Below, one piece after another: positions 7,228 to 37,448 of a stretch of 64,000 nucleotides of DNA. The DNA comes from Acidobacteriota bacterium (lineage in GTDB: Bacteria; Acidobacteriota; Thermoanaerobaculia; Multivoradales; UBA5704), in NCBI GenBank assembly GCA_046765915.1, contig JBKPTH010000002.1:28552-92551 (forward strand), written 5' to 3'. A program made the position numbers and the translations under genes. Under the pieces are notes generated by a model. It was given only the letters and a program-made list of their open reading frames with translations, did not search any database and was not told where the DNA came from. Positions within the stretch are counted from its first letter, which is position 1. Every line of letters begins with the position of its first letter.

Positions 7228-8724
7228 TCAGCCGGCAACGCCAGCCTCGGCGACGGCCGGGGCGGCCTCGGCGCGCTCGGCCGGGGCGTCGACGCGCCGG
7301 GCAACGGCGATGATGCCCAGGCCTGGACCGGGGAGGTGGGGATCGAGCCTGCGGATCAGCGGCACCAGCACGTTGAACACCTTGAGCTGCACACGGCTGA
7401 AATAGCGCCGCTTGAGGAGCTTGCCGTTGAGCCACCAGCCCGGGACCGAGAGGTGGTTGAAGTCGCGGAAGCTCTCCACCTCGAAGCCGGTGGCGCGCAG
7501 CTCGCGGGCGAGCTGCGCTTTCGAGTAGCGGCAGCGGTGCCCCAGCACCTCGTCGAGCGTCGAATACAGCTCCTGGCCCTGCGGCACGTAGAGCAGCAGC
7601 CGGCCCCCGGGCTCGAGGGCGCTCGCCATGTTGCGCAGCGCCACCAGGGGATCGCGCACATGCTCCAGCACGTTCAGGCAGACGACCGTGTCGAACCGCC
7701 CGCGCCACGGCTCGAAGCAGCGCGGGTCTTCGAGGTCGATGCGGTCGACCTGCAGATAGGGCTTGCCCAGGGCAAGGTTGCGCAGGTACTGGAGATAGTG
7801 CGGATTGATGTCGCTCGCCACGTAAAGGTCGCGGGGCAGGAGCCAGGCGGTGATGTTGCCGATGCCGGCGCCGATCTCGAGCACCCGCGCGCCGCCGTAG
7901 GGCAGGATGGCTTCGGCCATCCAGCGGTTGAAGCGCTGCGCCCGCTCGAGACTGTGGAGGATGTGGGAACCGTACTCGTCTTCGGTGTAGACATCGTCGA
8001 GGATCCAGTAGCGCAGGACGGCGCGCAGGGCCTTGAAGGCGTCCTTCCAGCCGATCTTCTTGCCCTCGCGATAGGTGCGGCCGAGGTAGCTGATCGGCAC
8101 CTCGAAGACGCGGCACTCGCGCTTGGCGACCTTGGCGGTGATCTCCGGCTCCAGGGCGAAGTCGTTCGAGCGGATCGGGATCGACTTCAGAAGCGGCGCC
8201 CGGAACATTTTGTAGCAGGTCTCCATGTCCGTCAGGTTCAGGTCGGTGAACCAGTTGCTCAAGGTGGTCAGGAGACGGTTGCCGAGCGTGTGGCGGTAGT
8301 AGAGGACGCGGCGGCGCTCGCTGGGCAGGAAGCGCGAGCCGTAGACCACGTCCGCGCCGTCCTCGAGGAACGGCTTGGCGAGCCGGGCGTAGTCGCGCGG
8401 GTCGTACTCCAGGTCGGCGTCCTGGAAGACGATGAGGTCGCCGGTGGCCGCGGCGATGCCGGTGCGGATGGCCGCCCCTTTGCCCTGGTTGCGCTCGTGC
8501 TCGATGTAGCGGATCATCTCGGGGTGCCCGGCGGCCAGCCGGCGTAGGATGTCGCGGGTGCCGTCCTTCGAGCCGTCGTCGACAACGATGACCTCCAAGC
8601 CCTGGATGCCGGGCACCTCGACGGCGAGCACGCGGTGCAGCAGCTCTGCAACGAGAAACCGCTCGTTGTAGACGGGGACGACGACGGAGAGCTTGAGTTC
8701 TTGGCTGTTGGCCTGTCCGAGCAT
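7228..8724 (-). CDS. GT2 polyprenyl-phosphate sugar synthase-like (Dpm1/GtrB-type) fused to C-terminal class I SAM-dependent methyltransferase
   Basis: The N-terminus (LSVVVPVYNE...VIVVDDGSKDGT...VVYGSRF) is Dpm1-like. The C-terminus (VLEIGAGIGNITAWLL...VVCLNVLEHVRDP...EPGGRLLLYVPQ) is a class I methyltransferase fold. Confidence 0.7.
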   Translation of the reverse strand: MLGQANSQELKLSVVVPVYNERFLVAELLHRVLAVEVPGIQGLEVIVVDDGSKDGTRDILRRLAAGHPEMIRYIEHERNQGKGAAIRTGIAAATGDLIVFQDADLEYDPRDYARLAKPFLEDGADVVYGSRFLPSERRRVLYYRHTLGNRLLTTLSNWFTDLNLTDMETCYKMFRAPLLKSIPIRSNDFALEPEITAKVAKRECRVFEVPISYLGRTYREGKKIGWKDAFKALRAVLRYWILDDVYTEDEYGSHILHSLERAQRFNRWMAEAILPYGGARVLEIGAGIGNITAWLLPRDLYVASDINPHYLQYLRNLALGKPYLQVDRIDLEDPRCFEPWRGRFDTVVCLNVLEHVRDPLVALRNMASALEPGGRLLLYVPQGQELYSTLDEVLGHRCRYSKAQLARELRATGFEVESFRDFNHLSVPGWWLNGKLLKRRYFSRVQLKVFNVLVPLIRRLDPHLPGPGLGIIAVARRVDAPAERAEAAPAVAEAGVAG

Positions 8725-8758
8725 GGGATCTCTCGAGCAGCGTACGATAACACGCTGG
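8600..8758. repeat. copy 1 of a ~155 bp imperfect direct repeat (5' coding end plus leader of the GT2-methyltransferase gene)
   Basis: It is ~85% identical to 10195-10348 and includes the ATG, ~35 bp of leader and an inverted repeat CAGCGT-N8-ACGCTG. Confidence 0.8.
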
Positions 8759-8776
8759 CCGCGGAGCTAGGTGGAC

Positions 8777-8830
8777 ATGCCGAGCGGGCAATTGCAGGTC
8801 ATCCTGGACGTCAACGGCTACTTCCAATAA
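8777..8830 (+). pseudogene. relic C-terminal fragment of the recurrent VNGYFQ domain (MPSGQLQVILDVNGYFQ*)
   Basis: The 17-codon ORF ends with the same ...VI.DVNGYFQ-stop tail as 1464-3257. It lies between two minus-strand genes with no upstream body. Confidence 0.4.
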
Positions 8831-10313
8831 CGCGCCGCTCGCCTCCATCGAGCCAGGCCCCTGGATACGTTTTTTCCTTGGGCACCCCCATGAGCTCCAG
8901 GAGCCGCATGGGGGCGAAGCCCCCCTGAAGCTCCAGCACGTACGGCGTGTTGTGCAGCCGCCAGAGGTTGTCGAAGTTCGCATTCAGGATCGGCTCACTA
9001 CCGCCCTGATAGATGAAGGCGCCGACCGCCTGCACCCAAACCGAAAACACACAGGCGGCGACGAACAGCAGCTTCGGCAGCGGGCGCAGCGCCGCCACGA
9101 TGGGCGCAAGCATCCAGATCAAGATCGGCAGCACGTCGGTGAGGAAACGTGGGCCGTAAGAAAACCCGCCGCGCCAATCCGAGCGCGCGTAGAGCAGGAG
9201 TTGGAGCACCACGCCCGTGGCGAGGCACAGGGTGAGCTGGCGCCAACGCGGATCCTCCGAGCTGACACGAAAACGGAGCGGCAGAAACAGCAAGAACGGC
9301 GCGAAGGTGAAAAGGCCTTTGCCGGGACTGAAGAGCAGTCCCACAATTCCTACGGGGATTGGCTGGGAGAAGAACTGGGACCCGGCTAGAATGATGCCGT
9401 AGCCGCCGCTCACATTCCCGAACATCCAAAGGTTATAGGCCAGCGTCAACGCAGCCGGGATCGCAGCGGCGGCGAAAAAGGCGACCGCCCGCCTGCGGGC
9501 CCAGGGGAGAGCATAGGCGGCGAAGCCGACCGCCAACAGAGCATTCGCGGGGCGGTTCGCGGGTAGGAGGCCGGTGGCCAGCCCGGCCGCGATCACGTTG
9601 CCCCATCGCGGCTGCCGGGACATCAGCAAGAGGCTCGCCGTCACGAACAGCTCGGTGGCGCCGTGCTGCCAGAGGGCTTGGCTGCTGCTCATCCAGTGGT
9701 TGGTGCCGAAGGCATAGGCGCCAGTCACGAGCAGGGCCTCCTGCACGGCGACGCGGCGCCTGAGCAGCAGGAACATGAGGCCCACCGTCAGGGCGGCGAC
9801 GGTCGATGCCGCCACCTTTTCCATGATCTCGCCGACCACAGCGAGGCGTTGATCGGACCTTCCGCTCTGGTGCAGGTAGAGGACGGCGGGTAAGTACAGC
9901 GGGGTGACCAGCAGCGGCGTCACCACCGGGTAGGTCGAGGCCGTCCGGCCGTCGCGCGAGGTGAGAATCCAATAGATGATGGAATGGGGATACCCTCCGC
10001 GGGTCGCCTCGAGGACGGAGTCGAGGTGCAGGCTTCCCTCCTCCCAGATCGCGAACGGCAGGAAACGGGCCGGCAGCGAGTCGCCGGTCGCAATGGTGCG
10101 GAAATTGGCGTTGTAGACGAGCAAGGACAGAAAAGCCAGCAGGACCGCCAGATAGAGGTCCCGGCGCCCCGCCGGCGCCAGAGCGAGCGGGCGACCCTGG
10201 ATGCCGGGCACCTCAACGGCGAGCACGCGGCAGCTCTGCGACGAGGAATCGCTCGTTGTAGACGGGGATGACGACAGGAGCTTGAGCTCTCTGCTGTTGA
10301 CCTGATCGAGCAT
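8811..10313 (-). CDS. polytopic GT-C-like membrane protein (putative lipid-linked-sugar-dependent glycosyltransferase); start supplied by a duplicated GT2 leader and 5' segment
   Basis: About 12 predicted TM helices with a large C-terminal soluble region. The only in-frame start codons (ATG 10313, GTG ~10210) lie inside the duplicated segment. Confidence 0.5.
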   Translation of the reverse strand: MLDQVNSRELKLLSSSPSTTSDSSSQSCRVLAVEVPGIQGRPLALAPAGRRDLYLAVLLAFLSLLVYNANFRTIATGDSLPARFLPFAIWEEGSLHLDSVLEATRGGYPHSIIYWILTSRDGRTASTYPVVTPLLVTPLYLPAVLYLHQSGRSDQRLAVVGEIMEKVAASTVAALTVGLMFLLLRRRVAVQEALLVTGAYAFGTNHWMSSSQALWQHGATELFVTASLLLMSRQPRWGNVIAAGLATGLLPANRPANALLAVGFAAYALPWARRRAVAFFAAAAIPAALTLAYNLWMFGNVSGGYGIILAGSQFFSQPIPVGIVGLLFSPGKGLFTFAPFLLFLPLRFRVSSEDPRWRQLTLCLATGVVLQLLLYARSDWRGGFSYGPRFLTDVLPILIWMLAPIVAALRPLPKLLFVAACVFSVWVQAVGAFIYQGGSEPILNANFDNLWRLHNTPYVLELQGGFAPMRLLELMGVPKEKTYPGAWLDGGERRVIGSSR

Positions 10314-10348
10314 CGGACCTCTCGAACAGCGTATGTTAACACGCTGGC
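10195..10348. repeat. copy 2 of the ~155 bp direct repeat (diverged, with small indels)
   Basis: It aligns to 8600-8758. Its translation (MLDQVNSRELKL...RVLAVEVPGIQG) matches MLGQANSQELKL...RVLAVEVPGIQG, with a frameshifted middle part. Confidence 0.8.
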
Positions 10349-10397
10349 TGCTCTGGTGGCGAAGGGCGAACTCGAGCTGATATAAGATAACAACTTC

Positions 10398-12452
10398 ATG
10401 GAACCGCTCGGCCGATCTTCGCCGCCGGTCACCGGCGTGCCCGACGCCCTGCGCATGCCGCACCCAGTATCCGCGGCGGCCACGGCCCGCCGCTTCACCC
10501 TGGCCCTCGCCCTGGTGGTGCTGGCGGTCGAGCTGGTCCTATATTTCCCGACGCTCGGCGCTTCCTGGGCCTACGACGACATGGACTACCTCAACTTGGC
10601 CGGGGACGTGCTGGCGGGTAAGCGACCGTTCTGGAACATGGTGTTCTTCCCCCAGGGCGAGCACCTAGTGATGATCCAACGCCTGGTCGTCTTCGCCAGC
10701 TTGAAGCTTTTCGGCGTCGACGTGCTCGCCTTCCGCCTGCTGAATCTGGCCGCTCATGCCGCAGCGGCGGTCTTCCTCGGTCTCATGGCGAGACGCGCCA
10801 GCGGGTCGGATGCCGCGGGCCTCGCCACCGGCGTCACCTATGTGGGGGCCGCGGGCCTGTCTTCGATGTGGGTCTGGTTCCCGACCGGCGCCGGCCTGAC
10901 CTTCGGGATCGCCTTCCTGACCGGCGCGGCGGCCGCCCTGGCCCATCGCGCGCGGCTCGGTGTCCGCCGCGCCCGCGTCCTGGCGGGATTGGGGGTCGTG
11001 CTCGGCCTCGCCTCGGAGAGCACGCTCTTCCCGCTGGTGGCGCTCCCCGTACTGCTCGACGAGGCCGAGCGGCGGCGTGAGGGGGCGCGGCGGCCGATCG
11101 GCGCCTTTGCGGTCTTCTGCGCCGTGGCGGTCGTGGCCTGCGTCGGCCTGGCTTCTTTCTTCTACCGCGGGAACTACGGGGGCTCGGGCTTTTCCATCAG
11201 CCTCCGCCACGGCATCCCGCGCGCCGTCTTCCTGATGCTGGTCGCCCCGTTCCGCCTGCTCTTCCCTGGCATTTGGACCGGCGCCTCCGATCCCGGCTTG
11301 AAGACGGCCGTTCTCGGCAGCGCCCTGGGCCTCGCGGTGGCGCTGCCGGCCGTCGCCCTCCTCCTCGCGCTCTGGCGGCGCGGCGCTCCCCGGCTCGCCG
11401 CCATTGCGGCGTTCGCCGCGGTCGGTCCTTTGGGTATAGTGGGACTGGTCGGGCTGGGGCGCTGGCGCACCAGCTACTGGGAGATCTTCGACGCCGACCG
11501 CTACTTCTTCACCTTGCTGATCCCCCTGTCGCTGCTCGCGGGAGCGGTGGCGGCCACCGCCTCCGAGCGCCTGCGGTCCTGGCCCTGGCGTCCCCGGATC
11601 GCTCTGTTGCTGCTGCTGTTCCTCGCTTTCGGCACCGAGCTGGCGCTCCACCGGCGGGCGATGCTCAACCGCATCCCGTTCCATGTCTATGACGACCACG
11701 AGAGGCGGCTGGATCAGCTCTCCCGGCTTGCCGACCGGCTCGAGACCGCGGCGCGGACCCTGCCCCCGGCTGCGCCGCCGCTCGAGTTTCCCGACACCGA
11801 CTTCTGGTTTCCCGAGGTGCACAACGGCCGGATCTCGGCGAGGCTCTTCGTCTACGCCATCTCCGACCGTGCCGACGGCCGCCTGCGCCTCGGCGGTCTG
11901 CGCGTCAGCGAGCGGGATTCCCGAATCCTCAATGCGGTCCTGGCAGCCTGGGCGCAGGAGATCGGCGAGCCGGGTCCCTTCTTGTCGATCGTCGACGGCC
12001 GTCTAGTCGACGCTCGTATTGCCCCCTTCGTCGATTTCCGAACCGATGCGCACGACGCGGTGGTGGTGAGCGGCTTCTACCGCTGGGAAGAGGCCAGCCG
12101 CTGGATGAGCAGGCGCGGCGAGCTGCGCCTGTCCCTGAGGTCGCGGCACCTCGCCTTCCTCCTGGCTGTGCCGCGGGAGGCCCTTGCCGGGCCGCAGGAG
12201 ATCGCGGTGACGGTGACGGCCGTCGACGAGGAGAGCGGCGGCTCGGCCGGGCTCGGCACGATCCACGTCCGGCAGGAAGGGATCCAGCGTTATCCGCTCG
12301 ACGCCAAGCCTTTCCTGGGCCGCATGGGGGCCGGCCGCATCGTCCGCCTCGTGCTGGAGAGCGACCGCACGTGGCGGCCGGACGCCACGATTCCGGGCTC
12401 GCTCGACCCCCGGCCTCTTTCCGTCCAGGTCTTTGCCGCGGGCTGCGAGTAG
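10398..12452 (+). CDS. polytopic membrane protein with C-terminal soluble domain, GT-C-like (possible glycosyltransferase)
   Basis: About 11 TM helices. The first loop carries the acidic motif WAYDDMDY, reminiscent of GT-C catalytic loops. It is divergent from the neighbouring membrane-protein gene. Confidence 0.45.
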   Translation: MEPLGRSSPPVTGVPDALRMPHPVSAAATARRFTLALALVVLAVELVLYFPTLGASWAYDDMDYLNLAGDVLAGKRPFWNMVFFPQGEHLVMIQRLVVFASLKLFGVDVLAFRLLNLAAHAAAAVFLGLMARRASGSDAAGLATGVTYVGAAGLSSMWVWFPTGAGLTFGIAFLTGAAAALAHRARLGVRRARVLAGLGVVLGLASESTLFPLVALPVLLDEAERRREGARRPIGAFAVFCAVAVVACVGLASFFYRGNYGGSGFSISLRHGIPRAVFLMLVAPFRLLFPGIWTGASDPGLKTAVLGSALGLAVALPAVALLLALWRRGAPRLAAIAAFAAVGPLGIVGLVGLGRWRTSYWEIFDADRYFFTLLIPLSLLAGAVAATASERLRSWPWRPRIALLLLLFLAFGTELALHRRAMLNRIPFHVYDDHERRLDQLSRLADRLETAARTLPPAAPPLEFPDTDFWFPEVHNGRISARLFVYAISDRADGRLRLGGLRVSERDSRILNAVLAAWAQEIGEPGPFLSIVDGRLVDARIAPFVDFRTDAHDAVVVSGFYRWEEASRWMSRRGELRLSLRSRHLAFLLAVPREALAGPQEIAVTVTAVDEESGGSAGLGTIHVRQEGIQRYPLDAKPFLGRMGAGRIVRLVLESDRTWRPDATIPGSLDPRPLSVQVFAAGCE

Positions 12453-12459
12453 CCGCTTG

Positions 12460-14991
12460 CTACCGCCCTGATTTCCGGAGCTCCCAATCGCTTGCGCTCT
12501 GCACGCTTGGCCCGGCTCCTGGGGTCCGTTTCCTGTCACGCCACAGAGCCGTGCCGATCAGCGCGAGGACGATCAACGCCGCTGCGAGAGACGCCACCAG
12601 TCCTGGCAGCAGACCCGGCGGAAAGTAGCTCAGCTCGACGACCAAGTCCCCGGCCGGCACCCGCACTGCGCGGAAGGCGTAGTTCGCCGCCAGGATCGGT
12701 GCAGGCCGCCCGTTGACGGTCGCCCGCCAGCCGGGGAAGAAAGACTCCGAGCAGTAGACCAGGCCGGGCCGCGGCGCATGGACCCGCAGCGTCACGCGGT
12801 TGCGCGAGAGCTCTTCCACCACGACCGGCGGCTCTCTCCCATCGTTCGGCACCGACGGAAACGCTGGCGGTTGCTCGACCAGGACCTCACGGTCAGCGCG
12901 GACCTCTGCCAGAGCCGGTAGGATCTTCTCGCGCGGCAGCCGGCGGTAGCGCGAAGTGAAGTAGTACCGGGGCGGCGTCGCTCTCTCGAACAGCCGCACG
13001 TAGCCGTCCGCGAAGAACTCTCTGTATCCCCTCTTAGCAGCTTCGACCGCTAGCGCGGAGCGGTCGACTTCGCGGATCGCCAGTAGCCCTACGTTGGCCG
13101 CATCGAGGACACCGTCGGGGGGCAACAGCGAAGCCTCACTGAGGAACAGGTAGGCACCCGGGGCCGCGTAGCTCTTGTACAGCTCGAGCATGCGCGGCGG
13201 GTTGAAAGTCATCATCGAATCGACCTGGAACAGCTCGAAAACCGACGCCGCGTTCGGGTGGAAGGCACCCGCGCCGTAGATGCGCCCCGCGTCCCGCCTT
13301 GCCAGCAGCTTCTGGACGTACGGCACGGGGTGCTTCCAGATGTTCCAGCGATCCTGCCGCGGATAGTAGGTGTTGATCACTCCCTCGACGGCCAGAAGCG
13401 CCACGATCGCGGCGGCGCACAGCCGCCGGCGCTTGACGCTCGGCTCGCGGGCTCCGGCGAGCGTCAGCAGGACCGCCGACGTCACCACGAGCAGGGCCAT
13501 GGCCAGGTACCACCGCGTGAGCCAAGCCGCGGCCTGCGAGTGAGCGAACGTGCCACGAACCAGGGCCACCGTCAGCATACCCAAGAGCACGATTCCCATG
13601 CCCAGGATGACGACCCAGACCCTGGTCCTCGACACCTTGCCACGCAGGAGACGCTCGAGGCCGATCCCCGCCGCGAACCCGAGCAGGATGTTGAGCGGAA
13701 TGCCGAAGTAATGCGCGAAGTGGATGGTCCTCAAGACCGGCAGCCGGGTCAGCGATTGCACGGGCTCGATGCCGGCCAGTTTGAGGACGATGAGCGCCGC
13801 AGCGGTCGCGACCACCACGAAAAACAGCCGGGTGTGCCGGGGCCCGACCCGTCCGGCCAGGCCTGCGATGAGCATGGCGACGACGCCGAGATACGGGAGG
13901 GTGATGCCGAGGCCGCCGATGTCAGGCATCGGCGGGCTCACGAAGACCTTGCCTCCGCCCATGAGAACCGGGGAGAGGAGTTGGGAAAACTGGTACCAAG
14001 GGAGGAAAGTGACCGATGCACCCTGGTAGTGCGCCGTGACCTGAGGGGTTGCTCGCATGACGGCGAAGGCGGGTAGGTAGTAGAAGCCCACCAGCCCCAA
14101 GGAGAGCGCGACGGCCGCCAGATACCGGCCTGCCTGCCGCGCTCTGTCTTCACCCGCCGCGATCAGGACGGTCGCGTACAGCCCTGACAGGCCGAAGGCG
14201 GCGAAGAGCAGCGGCGGAAAACTCGCCAGCGCCATCGCCGCGTAGCCGGCGGCGAGGAGCGCGGCGCGGCACCAGCTCGGCCGATCGAGGAACCACCGGG
14301 TCAGCAGGAGCGCCGGTGGCAGGCAGGCCGCGGTCTGTCCCATGAATGAGCCGACGTTCTGGTTGAGGCCGCCGCAGAAGAGGACTGCCACAGCGGCCGC
14401 AAATGACGCTTCCCGCGACAGGTGATGGCGGCGTAGGAGGAGGTACGAGAAAAAGGCCGCCGACAAAAGGACAGTCAGGAAGTACACGTTCTTGAGCGCC
14501 ACACCGTTGCCCAGCGCCACGAGTACGAGAGAGGGCGGAAAGAAGAACGCGGGGGTGAGATTCGCCATGGCAGGCACGCCCCCTCCCACGTAGGGATCCC
14601 ACCAGGGCAGCTCGCCGCGCCGCAGCCCTCGGCGCAGGAACTCGCCGCCCGGCTCCCATTGCCACCAGGTCGCACCGGCATCGTGGAAGTTTGCATAAGT
14701 CGACAAATTCCTGCTCGTCCAGACCTCGGCGGGCAAGAAGTCGGGTCCCTGGGTCTGCTCGAACATCCGGTAGTCCAGCGGGTTGTAATTGTCGCTGTAG
14801 ACCAGCGAGCGGCCGCCAAACACGACGTTGCAGTATGCCGCCGCAAGGAGCAGCAGGAGCAGGCCGCAGACCGCAGCTGCCTCCCGCAGTGGAATCGCCA
14901 TCCGGGGCTCCCCGGCAGGGGGTTGGACGAGCTTCTCTCCCGCCGGTTGCGCGAGCTCCTCGCCGGCCGCTACGGGACGCTCGTGCGTCAT
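12460..14991 (-). CDS. YfhO-like large polytopic membrane protein (GT-C superfamily-like)
   Basis: An 843 aa protein with many TM helices and a C-terminal extracytoplasmic domain. Its start overlaps the stop of the upstream dehydrogenase gene (ATGA), indicating the same operon. Confidence 0.5.
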   Translation of the reverse strand: MTHERPVAAGEELAQPAGEKLVQPPAGEPRMAIPLREAAAVCGLLLLLLAAAYCNVVFGGRSLVYSDNYNPLDYRMFEQTQGPDFLPAEVWTSRNLSTYANFHDAGATWWQWEPGGEFLRRGLRRGELPWWDPYVGGGVPAMANLTPAFFFPPSLVLVALGNGVALKNVYFLTVLLSAAFFSYLLLRRHHLSREASFAAAVAVLFCGGLNQNVGSFMGQTAACLPPALLLTRWFLDRPSWCRAALLAAGYAAMALASFPPLLFAAFGLSGLYATVLIAAGEDRARQAGRYLAAVALSLGLVGFYYLPAFAVMRATPQVTAHYQGASVTFLPWYQFSQLLSPVLMGGGKVFVSPPMPDIGGLGITLPYLGVVAMLIAGLAGRVGPRHTRLFFVVVATAAALIVLKLAGIEPVQSLTRLPVLRTIHFAHYFGIPLNILLGFAAGIGLERLLRGKVSRTRVWVVILGMGIVLLGMLTVALVRGTFAHSQAAAWLTRWYLAMALLVVTSAVLLTLAGAREPSVKRRRLCAAAIVALLAVEGVINTYYPRQDRWNIWKHPVPYVQKLLARRDAGRIYGAGAFHPNAASVFELFQVDSMMTFNPPRMLELYKSYAAPGAYLFLSEASLLPPDGVLDAANVGLLAIREVDRSALAVEAAKRGYREFFADGYVRLFERATPPRYYFTSRYRRLPREKILPALAEVRADREVLVEQPPAFPSVPNDGREPPVVVEELSRNRVTLRVHAPRPGLVYCSESFFPGWRATVNGRPAPILAANYAFRAVRVPAGDLVVELSYFPPGLLPGLVASLAAALIVLALIGTALWRDRKRTPGAGPSVQSASDWELRKSGR

Positions 14992-17139: not shown

Positions 17140-17180
17140 GCTCGTCTGCTCTCCTTTTCTATCCAAGCTCGCCGTCCAGC

Positions 17181-26576: not shown

Positions 26577-26695
26577 CGGGCCAGAAGACTAAGGCCAAAC
26601 CGGCAGGGTCGCAACAGCGGAGGGAAGGGATGAATCCAGCGGCCGATTTGTGTTATCCTGTGGTATCCTTATTGGACAGGAGGAGGACCTACACC

Positions 26696-27178
26696 GTGAA
26701 AAGAATCTATGCCTTTAGCGCAGTCGTGCTGACCCTCGCCGCCGTTGCGACGGCATTACCGGATGTCGCCTCGGCCGACGGTCCTTTTCGGTTCTTCGCC
26801 ATCACTCCTTGCCGGATCTTCGATTCGCGGGCTGATGGGGACGGCATCACGCCCTTGGCCAACGGCTTGCACTCGATCCGGGTCCAGGGCATCTGCGGCG
26901 TCCCTGTGGGCGCCAAGGCCGCGGCCCTCAACGTGACGGTTGTCACGCCGACCAAGCCCGGGCACATCACCATCTGGCCGGTCGGCGTATCAGAGCCCAC
27001 GGTGTCGACCCTGAACTTCCTGGCCAACGAGTCGGCGCTGGCGAACGGCGCTATCGTGCCGCTGGGTCCGGACAGCGGGGGCGCGGACGACGTGAGCTTC
27101 CGCTATTCGATGAACCCGGCTCCCGGCACCGGACACATCATCTTCGACGTGACGGGCTACTTCGCCACGGTGCCGTGA
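26696..27178 (+). CDS. small secreted protein consisting of signal peptide plus stand-alone copy of the recurrent domain
   Basis: GTG start preceded by the AGGAGGAGG ribosome-binding site. The signal peptide is followed by PCRIFDSR...CGVP...NVTVV...STLNF...IFDVTGYF. Confidence 0.55.
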   Translation: MKRIYAFSAVVLTLAAVATALPDVASADGPFRFFAITPCRIFDSRADGDGITPLANGLHSIRVQGICGVPVGAKAAALNVTVVTPTKPGHITIWPVGVSEPTVSTLNFLANESALANGAIVPLGPDSGGADDVSFRYSMNPAPGTGHIIFDVTGYFATVP

Positions 27179-27234: not shown

Positions 27235-27268
27235 TATTCCCTGAATCGAGGAGCGTAGCTTCGCTTCC

Positions 27269-29470: not shown

Positions 29471-29773
29471 ATGGAAAGACCCGAGGAGAGGCTGGAAGAG
29501 GCCCAGGTGAGTGGCCGCTCCGCAGCCGAGACGTTCGACCGCAAGCTGCGCGAACGCGAGCTCGCCGAGCGGGAGGCCCGCTTGACCCGCATGGCCTGGG
29601 GAGCCGAGGACGAGCCGCTCGCCCCATGGTCGAACGGACGCGAGCCCAACGACGAGGTCTGGCGCCTGCAACAAGACGTCGAGCGGCTGGCCGCTTTCCA
29701 TCGCGCGGTGCTCCAATCCAAGGGGTGGCGGGTGCTGCAAGCCTTGCGCCGTCCCTTTGGACGGAACTGGTGA
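29471..29773 (+). CDS. small coiled-coil protein
   Basis: GC3 is high. The stop is 2 nt before the next start. The C-terminus has the motif WRVLQALRRP. Confidence 0.35.
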   Translation: MERPEERLEEAQVSGRSAAETFDRKLRERELAEREARLTRMAWGAEDEPLAPWSNGREPNDEVWRLQQDVERLAAFHRAVLQSKGWRVLQALRRPFGRNW

Positions 29774-29775
29774 TG

Positions 29776-30069
29776 GCGAGCGAAGAGCAGTCGGAGATCG
29801 CCCGTCTGCAGGCCCAGGTGGCGGCTCTGGAGGCGGTGCTCGCTCGTCGCTCCCGGGAGCTGCGGCTGATCCAGAAATACATATGCCGGCGCGATCTCAT
29901 CCTCGTCTCGCGGTTGCTGTCGGGTTTTCCTCCTCTCCCGTTCGGCGCTTACGAGCCGGCCTTCTGGCAGGAGACGACCGCGCTCACCGGAGCTCATGTC
30001 GAGGAGACGCTGATCGACCTCTGGCGCTCGCTCGCGCCACTCCCCGAAAACCTCGATGAGCCGGCGTAA
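29776..30069 (+). CDS. small coiled-coil protein
   Basis: Heptad-like repeats (EIARLQAQVAALEAVL). Its stop overlaps the start of the downstream glycosyltransferase. Confidence 0.35.
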   Translation, partial: ASEEQSEIARLQAQVAALEAVLARRSRELRLIQKYICRRDLILVSRLLSGFPPLPFGAYEPAFWQETTALTGAHVEETLIDLWRSLAPLPENLDEPA

Positions 30070-31906: not shown

Positions 31907-31921
31907 GGTTCGTAAACGGCT

Positions 31922-32863
31922 GTGAAATCCGCGACTTCCCTGGGCCTGCGGATCCTGACGGGCGTTCTCCTGCTCGCGGTGCTCCTGGTGGCGAACCCCG
32001 CCCCGCTCCTCACCGCCCTTCGCGGTGGGGACTTAGCCCGCTTAGCAGCCGCCGTAGTGCCATTTGTCGCCGTGCTCCTTCTGGATGCTCTACGATTTGC
32101 GCTGCTCTTCGAGCCCTACCACCTGCGATACCGAACAGCGGTGCGCGTCTCCCTGGCGAGTATGTTCGTCGGAAGCTTTACGCCAGGCTCCCTGGGAGGG
32201 GAAGCTTACAGGGTCTACTTCCTGCACCGCCGCGCACCGGGGCTGGTCCGTCCGATCGCGCTCACGGTGCTGCTCCGGCTAACCGGAATCGGTGCCAGCC
32301 TCTCACTCGCTGGACTCTATTTCGCCGTCTATCCCGGGCGGATTGCAAGGGGGAAAGATCTTCTACAGATCCGCTGGAGCGAGACCGCGCAGTCCGCTGT
32401 GGGATGGATTGGGCTCTTGCTCGCGGCCGGTTTGGGTGTCGTGATGGCGAGCCCCGGTGGGCGTGCCCTCTGCCGGCGCGCCGGAGTAGCCCTGGCCGAG
32501 GCAAGCAAAGGTGCGCGCCGCCCGCTACAGCTCGTCGGCCTGGCGCTGGCCAGTCTGCTGGTCGCTGCTGGGAGAATCGCATATCTCTTTCTTCTGGCGC
32601 GGGCCTTTTCACCGCACCTCTTCCTCCCAGACCTGGCACCGGTAGCAGCGGCGACGGCCGTTGCCGGAGCTCTCCCGATCACGATCGGCGGCCTGGGCAC
32701 ACAGGAGGGAGCGCTCGCGGCCGGACTCGTCCTCATCGGCCTGCCGTATCCCGAAGCGGTGGCAATCTCCCTCCTTAACCGAGGATTCCTGTGGAGTGCT
32801 GCGGCGGCCGGCTGGCTGTCCATGGGCAGCTCCTGGCGCGAAGGGATGCGGCCGGCCACCTGA
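31922..32863 (+). CDS. flippase-like membrane protein (lysylphosphatidylglycerol-synthase TM-region / UPF0104 family)
   Basis: About 8 TM helices. The TIGGLGTQEGALAAGL motif is typical of this family, which is often found next to polyprenyl-P-sugar GT2s. Confidence 0.5.
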   Translation: MKSATSLGLRILTGVLLLAVLLVANPAPLLTALRGGDLARLAAAVVPFVAVLLLDALRFALLFEPYHLRYRTAVRVSLASMFVGSFTPGSLGGEAYRVYFLHRRAPGLVRPIALTVLLRLTGIGASLSLAGLYFAVYPGRIARGKDLLQIRWSETAQSAVGWIGLLLAAGLGVVMASPGGRALCRRAGVALAEASKGARRPLQLVGLALASLLVAAGRIAYLFLLARAFSPHLFLPDLAPVAAATAVAGALPITIGGLGTQEGALAAGLVLIGLPYPEAVAISLLNRGFLWSAAAAGWLSMGSSWREGMRPAT

Positions 32864-32922
32864 GCGTCGGAAAACAAGTTGCGGCGAAGCCATGAGTCCA
32901 CTATGCTGCGCAAAGACTTCCG

Positions 32923-34716
32923 ATGGATACCCAAGCCCTCGATGATGCCGAGGCGGTCTCCGCTGACTATGGCGTAGAGACAACTGCGGCGAACCAGCAC
33001 GCCGAAACGCTGCTATCACGGCGGCGGTTCCGGGATCCAGGCCTCGCAGGGTTGGCGCTGTTGCCCCTCGTCTTGCTCGCGCTCGATTCGAACTGGATCT
33101 ACAGCGGCCCCCACCGTGACGCCTGGATCTACTTCGGCTACTTCCAGAACGCCATTTTCTATCTGAGGCATTTCCAGGACCTCTACTACTCATCTCGCCT
33201 CGCGGTCATACTTCCCGGATTCGTGGTCTATCACTTGCTCCCGCCGGTGGTCGCTAACTTTGTGCTCCATCTCGCCCTCTACTGGGCCGCCGTCCTGTCC
33301 TTCTACTACGTCACGAAAGAGCTTTTCGGGGCCCGGGTGGCGTTGCTCGCCGGGCTCGCCTTGGGCTGCCATCCGTACTTCCTCCAGGCGATCGGGTGGA
33401 ATCACCCCGACGCGTTCGGAATCACCTACTTCCTGTTGGCGCTACTCTTCCTGACCCAGGCCAGCATTTCTCCTGCATGGCGATTCCTGCTTCTGGCCGC
33501 GGGGGCCATGGCAACGGCCATCCTCTCGTCCAACCTCTTCTATGGGATTTACTTGCCTCTGCTGGCAGGACACTTCCTAGTGCTCAACCGGCAGCGCGGG
33601 CGTATCCCTCTGCTCCCGGCTGTAGCTTGTGTGGCGTCAGGAGCAGTCGGCATGCTCCTCCTTTTCGGGTCGCTGACCTGGATGCTCGGCGGCGAGTTCT
33701 TTTATTTTCGTTCGTCCCTGAAATTCGTCTCGGGCTCCATAGGAACCCCGAATATCTTTCGCGATCCCACCTACTCATGGCTGCTGTTGGCGGTCTGGCT
33801 CGTGTTTCCGGCGGTGGTTCTCTTCGGCGCAGCCATCCTTCTGGGGCGGTCACGGACCCGCGCCTCCTTGCGCCAGGACCGCCTGCTGCTATGGTCGCAG
33901 ATCCAGTTCCTCATTCTGCTCGCGGCCATGCTCTTCTTTCAGGTCTTCGGCGATACCGCGGTGCTGGAGCACTTCTACTATGCGAGCCTGTTGATCCCTT
34001 CCGCCTTCCTGGCCTTTGCAGGCCAGCTCCGGCAGTTGATGGACGGCCTTCCCGACCGACTGTTCACCGGGCTGGCAGCGGTCGTGGCATTGCTCCAGAT
34101 CGTGCCCCTGTGCGTGCCGATAGTCCATTCCCTCACGAAGGACGGGATGCCTTTCAAAGCCCCAGTCCCTCTGGCCCTCTTCGCCGGGCTCGGCGTCGCG
34201 GTCGCCATGTGGCGGAAGACGACCGGGATGCGGGCGATCCTGAATCTCTTCCTGTGCCTTGCGCTCTCGCAATTCCTGGTGCGGCAGGGGGGCACGATCT
34301 TCGAGCAATTCGAGCACCACGACGGCGACGGACGCGGCCTCTTTCGGCAGCTCAGCCACGCCGTGACGGCGATCGAGAGATTCGATCCTTCTCAGAATGC
34401 GCGCCTCTGGTATGACCTCGATGAGCACGATGGGAGGATCTACGATGCCGTGGCTTCCGCATTTCTGCTCTGCCCACGGATGATCGGGCTCGACTTTCCA
34501 GACATTCAAGCCGGCAGGATGTGCGACGGCGTCCAGCTCGGACCAGGCGTCCCGATCGCCATTCTCTCGGCGGACCCGGCCGCGTTCAAGAAAGCCGCTA
34601 CGGCGCTCCACAGCATCGGTCTCTCCGCCCAGTTTCTCGGGTGGGAAGAGATCGACGGTCCTTCGCGCGGATTCGCCCTCACGTACCTGCGGACCGAAAA
34701 AGGGCCTTCACCGTGA
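32923..34716 (+). CDS. large polytopic membrane protein of unknown function (possible GT-C-like glycosyltransferase or polymerase)
   Basis: About 13 TM helices with a C-terminal soluble domain. No recognisable motif. Confidence 0.45.
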   Translation: MDTQALDDAEAVSADYGVETTAANQHAETLLSRRRFRDPGLAGLALLPLVLLALDSNWIYSGPHRDAWIYFGYFQNAIFYLRHFQDLYYSSRLAVILPGFVVYHLLPPVVANFVLHLALYWAAVLSFYYVTKELFGARVALLAGLALGCHPYFLQAIGWNHPDAFGITYFLLALLFLTQASISPAWRFLLLAAGAMATAILSSNLFYGIYLPLLAGHFLVLNRQRGRIPLLPAVACVASGAVGMLLLFGSLTWMLGGEFFYFRSSLKFVSGSIGTPNIFRDPTYSWLLLAVWLVFPAVVLFGAAILLGRSRTRASLRQDRLLLWSQIQFLILLAAMLFFQVFGDTAVLEHFYYASLLIPSAFLAFAGQLRQLMDGLPDRLFTGLAAVVALLQIVPLCVPIVHSLTKDGMPFKAPVPLALFAGLGVAVAMWRKTTGMRAILNLFLCLALSQFLVRQGGTIFEQFEHHDGDGRGLFRQLSHAVTAIERFDPSQNARLWYDLDEHDGRIYDAVASAFLLCPRMIGLDFPDIQAGRMCDGVQLGPGVPIAILSADPAAFKKAATALHSIGLSAQFLGWEEIDGPSRGFALTYLRTEKGPSP

Positions 34717-34736
34717 CCGTGCGGTCCACGCGCGCC

Positions 34737-35891
34737 ATGGCCCGTCCTATGGTCGGGCTGGCGGAGGCCCCGATCCCGTTCAACCGCCCGGAACTCGCCG
34801 GTCGCGAGCTCGACTACGTGCGCGATGCTGTGGACCGGGGGCAACTGTCGGGAGACGGCTGCTACACCCGTCAGTGCCAGGAGCTCCTCTCCGAAATCCT
34901 GGGAGGGGCCCGCGTCTTGCTGACGACCTCGTGCACTCACGCCTTGGAGATGGCGGCGCTGCTGCTCGACATTGGTCCCGGGGACGATTTCATCGCCCCG
35001 TCCTTCACGTTCGTCTCTACCGTCAACGCTTTCGTCCTGCGCGGCGCCCGCCCGGTCTTCGCCGACATCCGGCCGGACACGCTTAACCTCGACGAGGAGC
35101 AGCTTTCTTCCGTCATCACGCCGCGGACCCGGGCGATCCTCCCGGTCCACTACGCCGGGATGGGCTGCGAGATGGACCGGATCCTCGAGGCGGCACACGC
35201 AGCGGGGGCCGCTGTGGTGGAAGACAACGCCCATGGGCTCTTCGGCGCCTGGCGCGGCCGCCCGCTGGGGACCTTCGGCGCCCTGAGCACGCTCAGCTTC
35301 CATGAGACCAAGAACGTCTTCTGCGGGGAAGGGGGCGCCCTGGTGATCAACGACCGCGCCCTCACCGCTCGGGCCGAGATCCTGCGCGAGAAGGGCACCG
35401 ACCGGAGCCGCTTCTTCCGCGGCGAGGTCGACCGCTACACCTGGGTCGATATGGGATCGAGCTACGTCCCCTCCGATCTCCTGGCCGCGTTTCTTCTGGC
35501 ACAGCTCGAAGCGCGGGAAACAATCCAGGCGAGGCGCTGCCGGATCTGGCAACGCTACCGAGAGGAGCTCGCTGACTGGGCTCTGGCGCATGGCACCCGC
35601 TTGCCGGTGGTCCCTAATGAATGCGGGCCGCCTTGGCATCTCTTCTATCTCCTACTCCCGTCGCTGGAGGAGCGCCAGGCGCTGATCGCTCATCTCAAGA
35701 GCCGCGGCATCCAGGCGGTTTTCCACTACCTCCCTCTCCACCTCTCCGAAATGGGGCGTCGGTTCGGAGGACGGCCAGGCGACTGCCCCGTGACGGAGAG
35801 CGTCAGCGATCGGCTCCTCCGCCTGCCCTTCTTTTCAGGGTTGACCGATTCCGAACAGACGCGGGTCATCGAGGCGATCCGCGCCTTCTAA
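34737..35891 (+). CDS. DegT/DnrJ/EryC1/StrS-family PLP-dependent sugar aminotransferase (WecE/ArnB-like)
   Basis: Contains DFIAPSFTFVSTVNA, VEDNAHG, and the lysine motif LSFHETKNVFCGEGG. Confidence 0.8.
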   Translation: MARPMVGLAEAPIPFNRPELAGRELDYVRDAVDRGQLSGDGCYTRQCQELLSEILGGARVLLTTSCTHALEMAALLLDIGPGDDFIAPSFTFVSTVNAFVLRGARPVFADIRPDTLNLDEEQLSSVITPRTRAILPVHYAGMGCEMDRILEAAHAAGAAVVEDNAHGLFGAWRGRPLGTFGALSTLSFHETKNVFCGEGGALVINDRALTARAEILREKGTDRSRFFRGEVDRYTWVDMGSSYVPSDLLAAFLLAQLEARETIQARRCRIWQRYREELADWALAHGTRLPVVPNECGPPWHLFYLLLPSLEERQALIAHLKSRGIQAVFHYLPLHLSEMGRRFGGRPGDCPVTESVSDRLLRLPFFSGLTDSEQTRVIEAIRAF

Positions 35892-35892
35892 G

Positions 35893-36510
35893 TCAGCCCT
35901 TCCGCGCCCGCAGGATAAAGTGACTGTAGGGGATAGGTAGCAGGTCCGTGACCAGCCTCTCCTCGATATCGGCGAAACGCGCTGCCACCAGTCTCCGGTA
36001 ACCCTCGGGAGTCCGCACGCGGCGGCCCCGGTCCCGGGAGATGAGAAAACGGGCGATCCACGACTGGTTGGAATGGAAGACTGGGTCTGAGGTGACGAAG
36101 CAGCCCCCCTCCCTCAGATGACCGTGGGCGTCGCGGATCAGGCGGTCAGCATCGGCATCGCTCAGGTGGTGAAGGACCCCCTTGGCCACCACGAGATCAA
36201 AGTCCCCTTCGAGCGGTGGCTCCTCTCCGACCCGGGCGCAGAAAAACCTGCCGCGGCTGCCGTAGCGCCGCTCGGCCTCGGCAACGTACCGGGGGTTCAG
36301 GTCGTAGCCGGTGTACTCCACGTCCGGCAGATCGTCGAGCAGCGAACCCGAACCGCAGCCGATGTCGAGGATCCTGGCGCCGGGAAACGGGAGTAGAAAA
36401 TTCCTCGCGAAGCGTTGCCGGGCTGCCCGAGCCCCGAGCGCCCGCTGAAACCCCTCGTACACGCCCGCCCACTCCAGGAGCCGGTAAATTCCGCTCGAGA
36501 GCTGCTCCAT
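35893..36510 (-). CDS. class I SAM-dependent methyltransferase
   Basis: Contains ILDIGCGSGS and VVAKGVLHHL. It shares an ATGA overlap with the upstream gene. Confidence 0.6.
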   Translation of the reverse strand: MEQLSSGIYRLLEWAGVYEGFQRALGARAARQRFARNFLLPFPGARILDIGCGSGSLLDDLPDVEYTGYDLNPRYVAEAERRYGSRGRFFCARVGEEPPLEGDFDLVVAKGVLHHLSDADADRLIRDAHGHLREGGCFVTSDPVFHSNQSWIARFLISRDRGRRVRTPEGYRRLVAARFADIEERLVTDLLPIPYSHFILRARKG

Positions 36511-37448
36511 CAGCGGGGCTCCTCGGCCTCGGGGAACCCCCCCCGGCGGCGGATGAGGTAGGTAGGCCGGTTTTCGCTGCTCTCGATGATCCGGAGGAGG
36601 TACTCGCCGACTACGCCCAGGCTGACGAGGAGTAGGCCACCAATCAGCATCAGGGCCGCGAAGAGGGAGGCCCAGCCCTGGACGCTGACTCCGTGGACGA
36701 TCCTCCTGTAGACCACCAGGGCCGCCAGGAGGAAGCTGATCGCGGCGAAGGAAATCCCCGCCACGCCCACCAGGCGCAGCACCAGCGAGGAGTTGTTGAT
36801 GAGGAGGTTGCTGAACACGCGGAACAGCTTCCGCAAGGTGTAGCCGCTCCGCCCTCCTTGCCGGGCACCATGGCCCACCGGTACACCGACCACGTCCTTG
36901 CTCACATGGAACATCAACGCTGGGAGAAAGGGATGTGGAGTTCGAATCGAAAGGACCCCGTCCACGACCGTGCGGCCGAGCAAGCGGAACGAGCTGAGCT
37001 GGATGCCTCGGGGCTTGCCGATGAGGATCTGGTCGAAGAAGCCCTTTATGCGGCTGGCGGTCCGCCGGAAGAAGCTGTGCCGTTTGCGTTCGAACTGTCC
37101 GATCGCGATGTCGTGGCTCGCGTGCGCCAGCAGCTTCGGGATGTCTTGCGGGTCGTGCTGCAGGTCGTCGTCCAGAGTGACGACCACCTCGCCTTGAGCC
37201 TCGCGCAAGCCGCACAGCGTGGCCGCCTGCTGACCGAAGTTGCGCGTCAATTGCACCGCTCTCACCTCTTTCCGCTCTCGCGCCAGCCGCTCGAGGGTCA
37301 GCCAGGTCCCGGGATCGGGTGAGCGGTCGTCGACGAAGACGATCTCGTAGGCATCCTCCGTTCGGTCCCGGAACACGGCATCGATGCGGTCAGCCAATTC
37401 CTCCAGGACCGGGCTGTCGTAGACGGGGATTACGATGGAGACGCGCAT
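36510..37448 (-). CDS. GtrB/ArnC-like polyprenyl-phosphate sugar transferase (GT2 with C-terminal TM helices)
   Basis: Begins MRVSIVIPVYD. Contains IVFVDDRSPD, VTLDDDLQHDPQDI and two C-terminal TM helices. Confidence 0.75.
   Translation of the reverse strand: MRVSIVIPVYDSPVLEELADRIDAVFRDRTEDAYEIVFVDDRSPDPGTWLTLERLARERKEVRAVQLTRNFGQQAATLCGLREAQGEVVVTLDDDLQHDPQDIPKLLAHASHDIAIGQFERKRHSFFRRTASRIKGFFDQILIGKPRGIQLSSFRLLGRTVVDGVLSIRTPHPFLPALMFHVSKDVVGVPVGHGARQGGRSGYTLRKLFRVFSNLLINNSSLVLRLVGVAGISFAAISFLLAALVVYRRIVHGVSVQGWASLFAALMLIGGLLLVSLGVVGEYLLRIIESSENRPTYLIRRRGGFPEAEEPR

Follow-up and report, generated by a model that had tools for sequence, protein, structure and literature searches.

The 64,000-nucleotide window analysed here (contig JBKPTH010000002.1, positions 28,552 to 92,551) comes from a soil-type acidobacterium of the class Thermoanaerobaculia and contains an island of about 37 kb (~3.5-40.3 kb of the window) with sugar-chemistry genes, three putative polyprenyl-phosphate sugar synthases, a flippase candidate and five predicted glycosyltransferases of the GT-C fold. 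We consider it likely that these genes form a composite island for a glycan of the cell envelope. The use of lipid-monophosphate sugars for periplasmic glycosylation has been studied in depth in enterobacteria, Firmicutes and mycobacteria, and to our knowledge it is essentially uncharted in the Acidobacteriota, a dominant soil phylum. The closest named relatives of the window's proteins are found in metagenome-assembled genomes of Thermoanaerobaculia (Acidobacteriota), and identical proteins are present in the Logan assembly of SRR20019834. At ~68% G+C, raw lists of open reading frames (ORFs) are crowded with spurious frames; genes were called by third-position GC bias (GC3). All nine genes named in a first-pass annotation, made from the sequence letters, lie where it placed them and carry the high GC3 of coding sequence, and the polytopic ORFs between 1 and 47 kb are the five GT-C candidates and the flippase-like protein only. 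Rfam and tRNA scans of the window identify no RNA genes. We regard the gene content, the assignments to families and folds, the coupling in operons and the synteny as established.

The three family 2 glycosyltransferases (GT2s) are Dpm1/GtrB-like, as had been proposed: best PDB matches, best NCBIfam matches and DPM1-type motifs agree. All three match PF00535 (131, 82 and 93 bits, from left to right), and their top PDB sequence matches are exclusively dolichyl-phosphate mannose synthase (DPMS; 5mlz), ArnC and GtrB, aligned to residue ~220-300. The best NCBIfam matches across the three are AglJ, PgfS, ArnC, PpgS and a haloarchaeal dolichyl-phosphate hexose transferase; none reaches an equivalog cut-off (ArnC 163 bits against 529, PgfS 130 against 500, AglJ 88 against 325), so that membership of the class is supported and particular substrates are not. 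The leftmost GT2 is fused to a class-I S-adenosylmethionine (SAM)-dependent methyltransferase whose GxGxG motif is intact, and has no transmembrane helix. Its best PDB matches are DPMS 5mlz (3.9e-18) and ArnC, its NCBIfam matches are AglJ, PgfS, ArnC and PpgS, and it contains the motifs DAD and F..PEI...EVPIS..R..G; these relatives and motifs argue against an ordinary polymer-building GT2. The second, GT2b, also lacks a transmembrane helix and shares with the fusion the DPM1-type region F..PEI...EVP....R..G.S; its Pfam GT2 domain covers residues 178-345 only and just the second Asp of the DxD-type site is kept. It matches ArnC, dolichyl-phosphate hexose transferase and PpgS in NCBIfam, and DPMS (9e-11) and ArnC in the PDB. 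The N-terminal ~175-177 residues of GT2b (17910-18434, minus strand) are coding (GC3 0.84-0.98), and no library and no fetched locus contains a homologue of the ~177-residue segment; a similarity to the C-terminus of WecB is sub-threshold (E 0.058) and was rejected as evidence. For the third, ArnC-like GT2 the alignment to ArnC and PgfS spans the entire protein, C-terminal hairpin included (NCBIfam ArnC, 163 bits, profile positions 7-310 of 316), with PDB matches to ArnC 9hwj (3e-41) and GtrB 5ekp (1e-30) and the motif DDD-LQHDP. The two to three hydrophobic peaks of this hairpin are absent from the other two proteins, which resemble anchor-less DPM1-type enzymes.

An Asp in the first extracytoplasmic loop after the first transmembrane helix (TM1) is the hallmark position of GT-C catalysis. 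The five large membrane proteins (GT-C candidates A to E; Table 1), which the first-pass annotation called GT-C-like, are supported as such, A and B by structure models and C, D and E by matches to YfhO or PMT_2. Single-sequence and profile searches with A and B found no Pfam, NCBIfam or PDB sequence match (in the PDB even at E≤10), and AlphaFold models were built from alignments of their homologues. The A family has at least 625 homologues, in which D78 and D98 are nearly invariant, and A itself matches no curated GT-C sequence family (for homologues, three of 46). In a Foldseek search with the A model (predicted local distance difference test score, pLDDT, 88.6) the top 19 matches are all GT-C or GT-C-like, including ArnT (4.9e-4), ALG12, AftB, AftA, ALG9 and PimE; ranks 1-17 also include STT3, DPY19, AglB, ALG3 and PglB, and ranks 18-19 are PIG-U and PimE again. 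The TM-scores against ALG12 are 0.49 (query-normalised) and 0.51 (target-normalised). The B family is smaller (~70 homologues, all from Thermoanaerobaculia or other Acidobacteriota) with D60, D61, E88 and H89 invariant. The B model (pLDDT 90.6) has only GT-C proteins among its top ten matches: EmbB (5.7e-6), ArnT (1.3e-4), STT3, PglB, AglB, Pmt1/2 and Pmt4; its C-terminal beta-sandwich matches carbohydrate-binding modules. The B and D families also align with each other (hhalign, 94.9% probability, E 4e-8), with YDD placed on SDE. Profile comparisons of A with B, A with E and B with the single D sequence gave no signal, nor did B with an STT3-like protein of L059 (handles of this kind denote homologous loci from other genomes). 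On these models, A and B are two GT-C families without Pfam or CAZy-type annotation and with a confidently predicted fold and candidate catalytic residues.

Could the large membrane proteins instead be transporters, Wzy-type polymerases or O-antigen ligases? The lack of Pfam, NCBIfam and PDB sequence matches for A and B, and of any otherwise visible Wzx, Wzy or WaaL in the island, leaves room for this, but the transporters in the two Foldseek lists (major facilitator superfamily, ATP-binding cassette (ABC) and complex-I proteins) all have probabilities <0.2 and TM-scores <0.2, beneath top matches that are GT-C only; no Wzy, WaaL or SEDS structure is listed; and C, D and E match GT-C Pfam families. 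We regard this alternative as very improbable and largely refuted: the predicted folds of A and B are those of GT-C enzymes and not of a transporter or polymerase.

The start of A as annotated comes from a duplication. A direct repeat of ~170 bp has its first copy (8600..8762, minus strand) in the native 5' untranslated region and first ~42 codons of the GT2-methyltransferase gene, and a diverged second copy, 84-90% identical and brought back into frame by indels of -1 and -5, at 10190..10351 (minus strand), so that the annotated start and first ~40 residues of A stem from a GT2 fragment; residues 1-40 of the model have low pLDDT. The two genes are convergent in relatives and in tandem here, which suggests a recent rearrangement.

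C matches the Pfam YfhO family (PF09586, 50.9 bits against a cut-off of 28.5) and is YfhO-like in length, topology and architecture, with a weak match to PgfM2; its homologues in other loci also match YfhO. Half of the D family sampled (15 of 30 diverse homologues) matches PMT_2 at E≤1e-3, the best at 7.7e-12, and the family profile matches AglB 3waj at 1e-3, with D36 nearly invariant. E has no match to any NCBIfam ArnT model and only a weak one (12%) to the D family profile. Single-sequence PDB searches with C, D and E returned nothing meaningful. All five proteins have 9-14 hydropathy peaks, and their N-termini are Arg-rich, fitting a cytoplasmic N-terminus. When the acidic motif of the first periplasmic loop is located, as the first-pass annotation had suggested, an acidic residue follows soon after TM1 in each: D78 in A, D60/D61 in B and D36 in D are conserved across their families, whereas those of C (SD at 66-67) and E (RD at 65-66) are seen in the single sequences only. 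In these features the five proteins behave as GT-C enzymes.

The flippase-like protein is an unambiguous member of UPF0104, the MprF flippase-domain family (PF03706, 93.5 bits against 33.4, profile positions 4-295 of 302; TIGR00374, 63 against 43.2), as first annotated, and in L008-L010 its gene is always followed by an orthologue of E. No coding ORF shorter than 300 aa with at least two transmembrane helices, as expected of GtrA-, ArnEF- or small multidrug resistance (SMR)-type flippases, occurs in the island, and the UPF0104 protein is its sole flippase candidate. We infer that it would flip polyprenyl-linked donors. Archaeal UPF0104 proteins are fused to or encoded beside dolichyl-phosphate sugar synthases and PMT/STT3-like genes and are predicted flippases (PMC5898192), although the characterised bacterial members flip phospholipids or glucosaminyl-phosphatidylglycerol (GlcN-PG) (PMC12713373). 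A different substrate is thus conceivable, namely a glycosylated membrane lipid of the GlcN-PG or glycosyl-diacylglycerol type made by the adjacent enzyme of glycosyltransferase families 2 and 4 (GT2+GT4), with the sugar donors using an unlinked flippase. The GT2+GT4 gene ends 15 nt upstream of the UPF0104 gene, and the GT4 half of its product is weakly similar to a GlcNAc-PG synthase (E 2e-13); phospholipids or glycolipids are the substrates of characterised family members (PMC12713373; bioRxiv 10.1101/2022.03.11.483950). Nevertheless, the UPF0104 genes of L008 and L010 retain their GT-C, aminotransferase and ArnC-like partners with no GT2+GT4 gene upstream, no deacetylase is present, and the archaeal gene associations point to sugar donors; a glycolipid substrate therefore seems unlikely to us.

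From operon structure and synteny, the island is predicted to split into four modules. The GT2-methyltransferase fusion, A and probably B make up module 1; B is followed by a 234-aa Dpm1-like GT2 in L007. Module 2 is a six-gene minus-strand operon running from 20550 down to 12460 with overlaps or gaps of ≤29 nt, in the order WecB, epimerase, GT2b, epimerase/dehydratase, UDP-ManNAc-dehydrogenase-like protein and, last, the YfhO-like C. The dehydrogenase scores 340 bits against the WecC-type model, under its cut-off of 459, and the sugar supplied by the module is probably a 2-acetamido sugar or the corresponding uronic acid. Module 4, the D block, comprises the sulfotransferase-GT2, a small secreted protein, D, two small ORFs and the GT2+GT4 gene, and is kept in L002 and L009; in both of these a 235-aa Dpm1-like GT2 follows D, a gene that the window lacks.

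Module 3 is an Arn-like cassette with UPF0104, E and an aminotransferase on one strand and a methyltransferase, the ArnC-like GT2 and a WbqC-family protein on the other, followed by a sulfotransferase and a gene of no assigned function, with a Peptidase_S74-domain protein at the edge. It is kept gene for gene in three other genomes (L008-L010) at 61-85% identity, with E orthologues at 61-62% and ArnC-like GT2 orthologues at 83-84%. The aminotransferase gene reported by the first-pass annotation is present, with its start at 34713 and not at 34521; that annotation overlooked its WecE-type identity, together with the methyltransferase fusion and the 206-aa methyltransferase gene. Since it passes the WecE model and reaches only 216 bits of the 631 set for ArnB types, the cassette sugar would be a dTDP-4-amino-4,6-dideoxyhexose, and module 3 probably delivers a modified form of this.

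In one 8.4-Mb genome the cassette lies 2 Mb from the B/D cluster and so appears to be an autonomous unit. This autonomy, the end-to-end alignment of its GT2 with ArnC, and the way in which aminotransferase, lipid-sugar synthase, flippase-like protein and a GT-C of the PMT_2/ArnT superfamily mirror ArnB, ArnC, ArnEF and ArnT raise the question of whether module 3 is a resistance pathway, independent of the island, in which an amino sugar on lipid A or the lipopolysaccharide (LPS) core changes surface charge. We doubt this: the aminotransferase is of the WecE type (543 bits) and not the ArnB type, the ORFs scanned include no ArnA- or ArnD-type enzyme, E lacks an ArnT match, and the conserved neighbours of the cassette (sulfotransferase, S74-domain and beta-helix proteins) are more in keeping with a surface glycan or fibre than with lipid A.

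The modules thus unite lipid-sugar synthases with GT-Cs by operon coupling and conserved synteny, as had been postulated. Translational coupling of the genes and recurrence of the modules in other genomes argue against a chance arrangement. The system was also described as present in several parallel copies; multiple branches are indeed indicated, although the copies belong to unrelated families and are not paralogues.

Table 1. Predicted genes and features of the probable glycan island and its right edge, with window coordinates. Scores are in bits, given against the cut-off of the model.
Feature	Coordinates	Strand	Notes
Bifunctional GT2+GT4 glycosyltransferase, cytoplasmic	3560..5734	+	Pfam Glycos_transf_2 + Glycos_transf_1; left edge of island
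DPM1-like polyprenyl-phosphate sugar synthase (aa 10-240) + class-I SAM methyltransferase (aa 277-418)	7228..8724	-	Pfam
GT-C A	8811..10313	-	~11 transmembrane helices; no Pfam family; conserved GDSxPARF loop after TM1
GT-C B	10398..12452	+	~12 transmembrane helices; C-terminal periplasmic beta-sandwich; invariant YDDxDY loop after TM1
GT-C C, YfhO-like	12460..14991	-	843 aa; 13 transmembrane helices; large periplasmic domain; terminal helix
Nucleotide-sugar dehydrogenase, UDP-ManNAc-dehydrogenase-like	14988..16229	-	TIGR03026 362 vs 190
Short-chain dehydrogenase/reductase (SDR)-family NDP-sugar epimerase or dehydratase	16219..17202	-	Pfam Epimerase; below all NCBIfam equivalog cut-offs
GT2b, DPM1-like (aa 178-410) + N-terminal ~175-aa domain without assigned function	17181..18434	-	Pfam
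SDR epimerase, GalE/TviC-like	18434..19402	-	
UDP-GlcNAc 2-epimerase (WecB)	19432..20550	-	First gene of operon; TIGR00236 429 vs 210
SAM methyltransferase + Trm112-like zinc-ribbon domain	20641..21903	-	
Secreted ~300-aa beta-helix protein	21867..22793	+	Signal peptide
SAM methyltransferase, 520 aa	22721..24283	+	
Sulfotransferase + GT2 fusion	24711..26576	-	Pfam; NCBIfam EpsD, MftF types; GT2 not Dpm1-like
Small secreted protein, stand-alone recurrent C-terminal domain	26630..27178	+	Directly upstream of GT-C D
GT-C D, PMT_2-like	27269..29299	+	SDE motif after TM1; C-terminal periplasmic Ig-like domain
Two small ORFs, ~91 aa each	29498..30042	+	Upstream of GT2+GT4 gene
Bifunctional GT2+GT4 glycosyltransferase, cytoplasmic	30056..31906	+	Pfam
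UPF0104/LPG_synthase_TM flippase-like protein	31922..32863	+	7-8 transmembrane helices
GT-C E, PMT_2-like	32923..34716	+	PMT_2 33.2 vs 26.1
WecE-type dTDP-4-keto-6-deoxyhexose 4-aminotransferase	34713..35891	+	NF008687 543 vs 375
SAM methyltransferase, 206 aa	35896..36513	-	NCBIfam methyltransferase matches; orthologues 74-80% in L008, L009
ArnC/GtrB-type polyprenyl-phosphate glycosyltransferase	36510..37448	-	C-terminal transmembrane hairpin
WbqC-family protein	37430..38152	-	Pfam 247; orthologues 80-85%; family found in amino-sugar clusters
Sulfotransferase	38205..39335	+	69% identical orthologue in L008
Conserved 326-aa protein	39332..40312	+	Last gene of cassette; orthologues 58-75%; no family match
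Peptidase_S74 intramolecular-chaperone-domain protein	41292..43256	-	Same position in L008-L010

The GT2-methyltransferase fusion is widespread. Among species-representative genomes, a scan confirmed at least 590 matches, and full-length relatives (41-80% identity) occur in Acidobacteriota, Verrucomicrobiota, Planctomycetota, Myxococcota, Bacteroidota and Chloroflexota; orthologues in relatives of this acidobacterium are 80% identical and lie near A homologues. At 69 loci with usable flanks, from several phyla, we looked for polytopic neighbours (ORFs of ≥400 aa with ≥7 transmembrane helices) and found one within 400 bp of the fusion in 44 and within 5 kb in 53. Ten such neighbours were sampled: one PMT, two PMT_2 and one TMTC-like protein with tetratricopeptide repeats (TPR), besides one Wzx-like protein, one unrelated permease and four with no family. 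This linkage is the strongest indirect evidence that the anchor-less GT2s would supply GT-C enzymes. In twelve acidobacterial loci the fusion and a small GT2 belong to what we term a GT-C garden, with YfhO-like, A-like (hhalign 97%), STT3/AglB_core-like, PMT-like and further polytopic proteins. These gardens are in L048-L062 and L068 (for example L059, 1308-16319). A 685-aa garden protein has an STT3 N-terminal match (47 bits) and AglB_core and lacks the WWDYG motif; it may be a bacterial oligosaccharyltransferase-like enzyme. A literature search of incomplete coverage returned nothing describing the fusion or these clusters, and nothing useful on WbqC or on Thermoanaerobaculia glycosyltransferases.

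Which periplasmic molecules would receive the sugars? A surface polysaccharide or LPS is most likely. The GT2+GT4 fusions, sulfotransferases and methyltransferases, a nearby carbamoyltransferase and the domain of B that resembles carbohydrate-binding modules all favour a polysaccharide. The first-pass annotation instead put forward proteins that carry a recurrent C-terminal domain. This domain (~125 aa with two Cys) has no Pfam, NCBIfam or PDB match; by tblastn it forms the C-termini of ORFs 18-1460 and 1464-3272 (copies at 1020-1460, plus strand, and 1470-1832, minus strand), stands alone in the small secreted protein at 26630-27178, and recurs in L002 (13674-14051). Its carriers are a glucose/sorbosone dehydrogenase-like protein, a reprolysin-like metalloprotease and, in L002, an FG-GAP protein. 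The pairing of the small secreted protein with D is kept in L002 and L009, where the stand-alone domain is 71-77% identical even in a case in which D drops to 29%, and this circumstantial support for the domain as a target of glycosylation is matched by an equally good reading of it as an anchor that binds the glycan.

A more general form of the same idea, in which secreted proteins (those with the C-terminal domain, the ~300-aa beta-helix proteins or the S74-domain protein) are the main acceptors of a protein O-glycosylation system of the PMT/Pgf/TMTC kind, is kept alive by that pairing and by the protein-glycosylating GT-C families that stand beside the fusion in other phyla (PMT, TMTC-like with TPR, and STT3/AglB_core-like). 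Domain-bearing proteins flank or lie within the cluster both here and in L002, and there are weak PgfS and PgfM2 matches. We judge it rather unlikely even so. B's extra domain is like those of GT-Cs that act on polysaccharides (PMC11127046), the island is rich in GT2+GT4 fusions of polymer type and in sulfotransferases and methyltransferases, the C-terminal domain may as well be an anchor, and it is found beside the GT2-methyltransferase gene in close relatives only.

In the scheme that we favour for the island, cytoplasmic enzymes would synthesise nucleotide sugars of unusual kinds and probably also a backbone glycan, with contributions from WecB, the UDP-ManNAc-dehydrogenase-like protein, the SDR epimerases, the WecE-type aminotransferase, the two GT2+GT4 proteins (that at the left edge probably makes the backbone), the sulfotransferase-GT2, the methyltransferases and the sulfotransferases. 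Each of the three Dpm1/ArnC-type GT2s would charge polyprenyl phosphate with a single sugar at the inner membrane face, fused or adjacent methyltransferases would modify the sugar before transfer, and the lipid-linked sugars would be flipped, for which the UPF0104 protein is the only candidate encoded here. The five GT-Cs, with an Asp in the first periplasmic loop, would then pass the sugars to periplasmic acceptors. This would be the three-component logic (PMC11127046; PMC5836110) in at least three chemically distinct branches. Cytoplasmic synthesis, flipping and periplasmic transfer were the course of events sketched by the first-pass annotation, and the predicted families, folds, operons and synteny support them; enzyme activities, donor sugars, the assignment of the flippase to modules and the acceptor are what we infer from these.

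Several observations weigh against this scheme. Two of the three GT2s have no membrane anchor, and with no equivalog cut-off reached donor and lipid specificity are not fixed. One flippase candidate would serve three synthases, and comes from a family whose characterised members act on phospholipids or glycolipids (PMC12713373; bioRxiv 10.1101/2022.03.11.483950). C matches YfhO over its C-terminal ~80 residues only (profile positions 753-834 of 835), the PMT_2 score of D itself (24.5 bits) is below the Pfam cut-off of 26.1, and the GT-C assignment of C, D and E comes from sequence families. The search for polytopic ORFs between 1 and 47 kb showed the window to be without a priming phosphoglycosyltransferase, Wzx/Wzy, ABC exporter or ligase, so the pathway to the acceptor must lie elsewhere. 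The evidence as a whole consists of sequence and models, from an organism known through metagenomes only. We also considered that the island might be a complete Wzx/Wzy- or ABC-dependent locus in itself, and rejected this because such genes are absent.

The predicted system can be compared with several others. As in O-antigen modification of the Gtr type (GtrA/GtrB/Gtr*), a GT2 would form a polyprenyl-phosphate monosaccharide for flippase export and periplasmic transfer by a GT-C, and the ArnC-like GT2 has the GtrB architecture of a GT-A domain with a transmembrane hairpin. However, the island has UPF0104 in place of a GtrA, SMR or MATE flippase, and three synthases and five GT-Cs where Gtr has one of each; two of these synthases are anchor-less, one of them fused to a methyltransferase, and the GT-Cs are of other families, two of them unannotated. 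GT-C enzymes with carbohydrate-binding modules that bind the acceptor glycan have been described together with the three-component concept (PMC11127046, Kelly et al. 2024), and the domain of B resembles those of the GT136 founder and the Emb proteins, which suggests a polysaccharide acceptor. Module 3 joins an aminotransferase, an ArnC-like synthase and a PMT_2 GT-C as the Arn system (ArnB/ArnC/ArnA/ArnD/ArnEF/ArnT), which adds aminoarabinose to lipid A, does, but with a WecE-type aminotransferase, no formyltransferase/decarboxylase or deformylase among the ORFs scanned, UPF0104 and not ArnE/F, an extra methyltransferase, WbqC and sulfotransferase, and scores below the Arn equivalog cut-offs.

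A GtrB/Dpm1-like GT2 and a YfhO-type GT-C in one operon, as in module 2, are also found in CsbB/GtcA/YfhO teichoic-acid glycosylation and in streptococcal Pgf (PMC5836110, PMC7389260). The island differs in lacking GtcA and in the WecB, dehydrogenase and epimerase genes of its operon, from which a different sugar is expected. Acidobacteriota are generally regarded as diderm, and unlike in CsbB/YfhO hosts teichoic acids are not expected. Mycobacterial arabinan and mannan assembly (Ppm1/DPPR synthase, Emb, Aft, PimE and MptA-type enzymes) likewise uses many GT-Cs on polyprenyl-phosphate monosaccharide donors, with which a glycan is built up or branched outside the cytoplasm, and the A model comes closest to AftB, AftA and PimE, the B model to EmbB; there is no homology at the sequence level, the phylum and envelope are other ones, and periplasmic construction of a whole polymer is not indicated here. 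The archaeal triad of AglD-like GT2, UPF0104 and PMT/STT3-like genes (Makarova et al. 2015, PMC5898192) has the same three families side by side, whereas the island is bacterial, with an unfused GT2 and dedicated amino-sugar enzymes; both are known from genes alone. The island would thus work like Gtr, Arn, CsbB/YfhO and, in GT-C multiplicity, mycobacterial arabinan assembly, and is predicted to be orthologous to none of them, since its GT2s and aminotransferase fail the equivalog cut-offs of the named glycosylation systems (that of WecE was passed).

The remaining genes of the island are mostly shared with the related loci. The GT2+GT4 gene at the left edge has a 63-68% identical orthologue near the GT2-methyltransferase gene in L005. 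The ~1.5 kb between these two genes in the window (5734-7228) contains no convincing gene, Rfam match or tRNA; a 172-codon frame within it (6427-6945, minus strand) has a GC3 of 0.82 and no family match. The secreted beta-helix protein is a candidate glycan-processing enzyme or acceptor; it has a 57% identical syntenic orthologue in L002, called Beta_helix, and 44% identical paralogues inside module 3 of L008 and L010. The beta-helix proteins of ~300 aa and the S74-domain protein are possibly surface fibres or glycan-processing enzymes. In the D block, the sulfotransferase-GT2 has a 74% identical syntenic orthologue in L002, the GT2+GT4 protein a 77% identical one in L009 (its GT4 part being that with weak similarity to GlcNAc-PG synthase), and the two small ORFs have 41-61% identical orthologues in L002 and L009 with no family match.

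To the right of the island, the region 43397-47256 (minus strand) encodes a NodU/CmcH-type carbamoyltransferase (45376-47256) followed by a protein of ~647 aa with an SGNH-like 'FFGES' motif near its N-terminus and no Pfam or NCBIfam match; this region may O-carbamoylate the same glycan. A sulfate/molybdate-type ABC importer (binding protein and two permeases, 52414-55157) lies ~12 kb from the sulfotransferase genes and may feed sulfate to sulfated glycans, or the proximity may be coincidental. The ORF at 47142-47825 encodes an RRM-domain RNA-binding protein with a Gly/Tyr/Arg-rich tail derived from short GGC-rich repeats (47590-47763). At 58183-64000 a 103-nt unit is repeated 5-6 times in tandem (58183-58800), and there are a gene for a tyrosine integrase (58925-59962) and a fall in G+C from ~0.70 to 0.52, probably the edge of an integrated mobile element.

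The cassette, a portable one with UPF0104 in the position of the flippase, could settle whether this family flips polyprenyl-linked sugars. The tight linkage of the fusion to GT-C genes makes modification of a sugar on its lipid carrier a testable hypothesis, and the cultured Chthoniobacter flavus Ellin428 (Verrucomicrobiota; L069), in which the fusion adjoins a PMT_2 gene, offers an experimental handle. More speculatively, and at present improbably in our estimation, the fusion would make a methylated polyprenyl-phosphate sugar, an undescribed class of donor, that is flipped by UPF0104 and feeds gardens of 5-8 GT-Cs, the two unannotated families among them. If this were so, the gardens would work mostly outside the cytoplasm, where they build or branch a surface glycan or glycosylate secreted proteins, in a manner similar to mycobacterial arabinan assembly but in a phylum usually taken to be Gram-negative.

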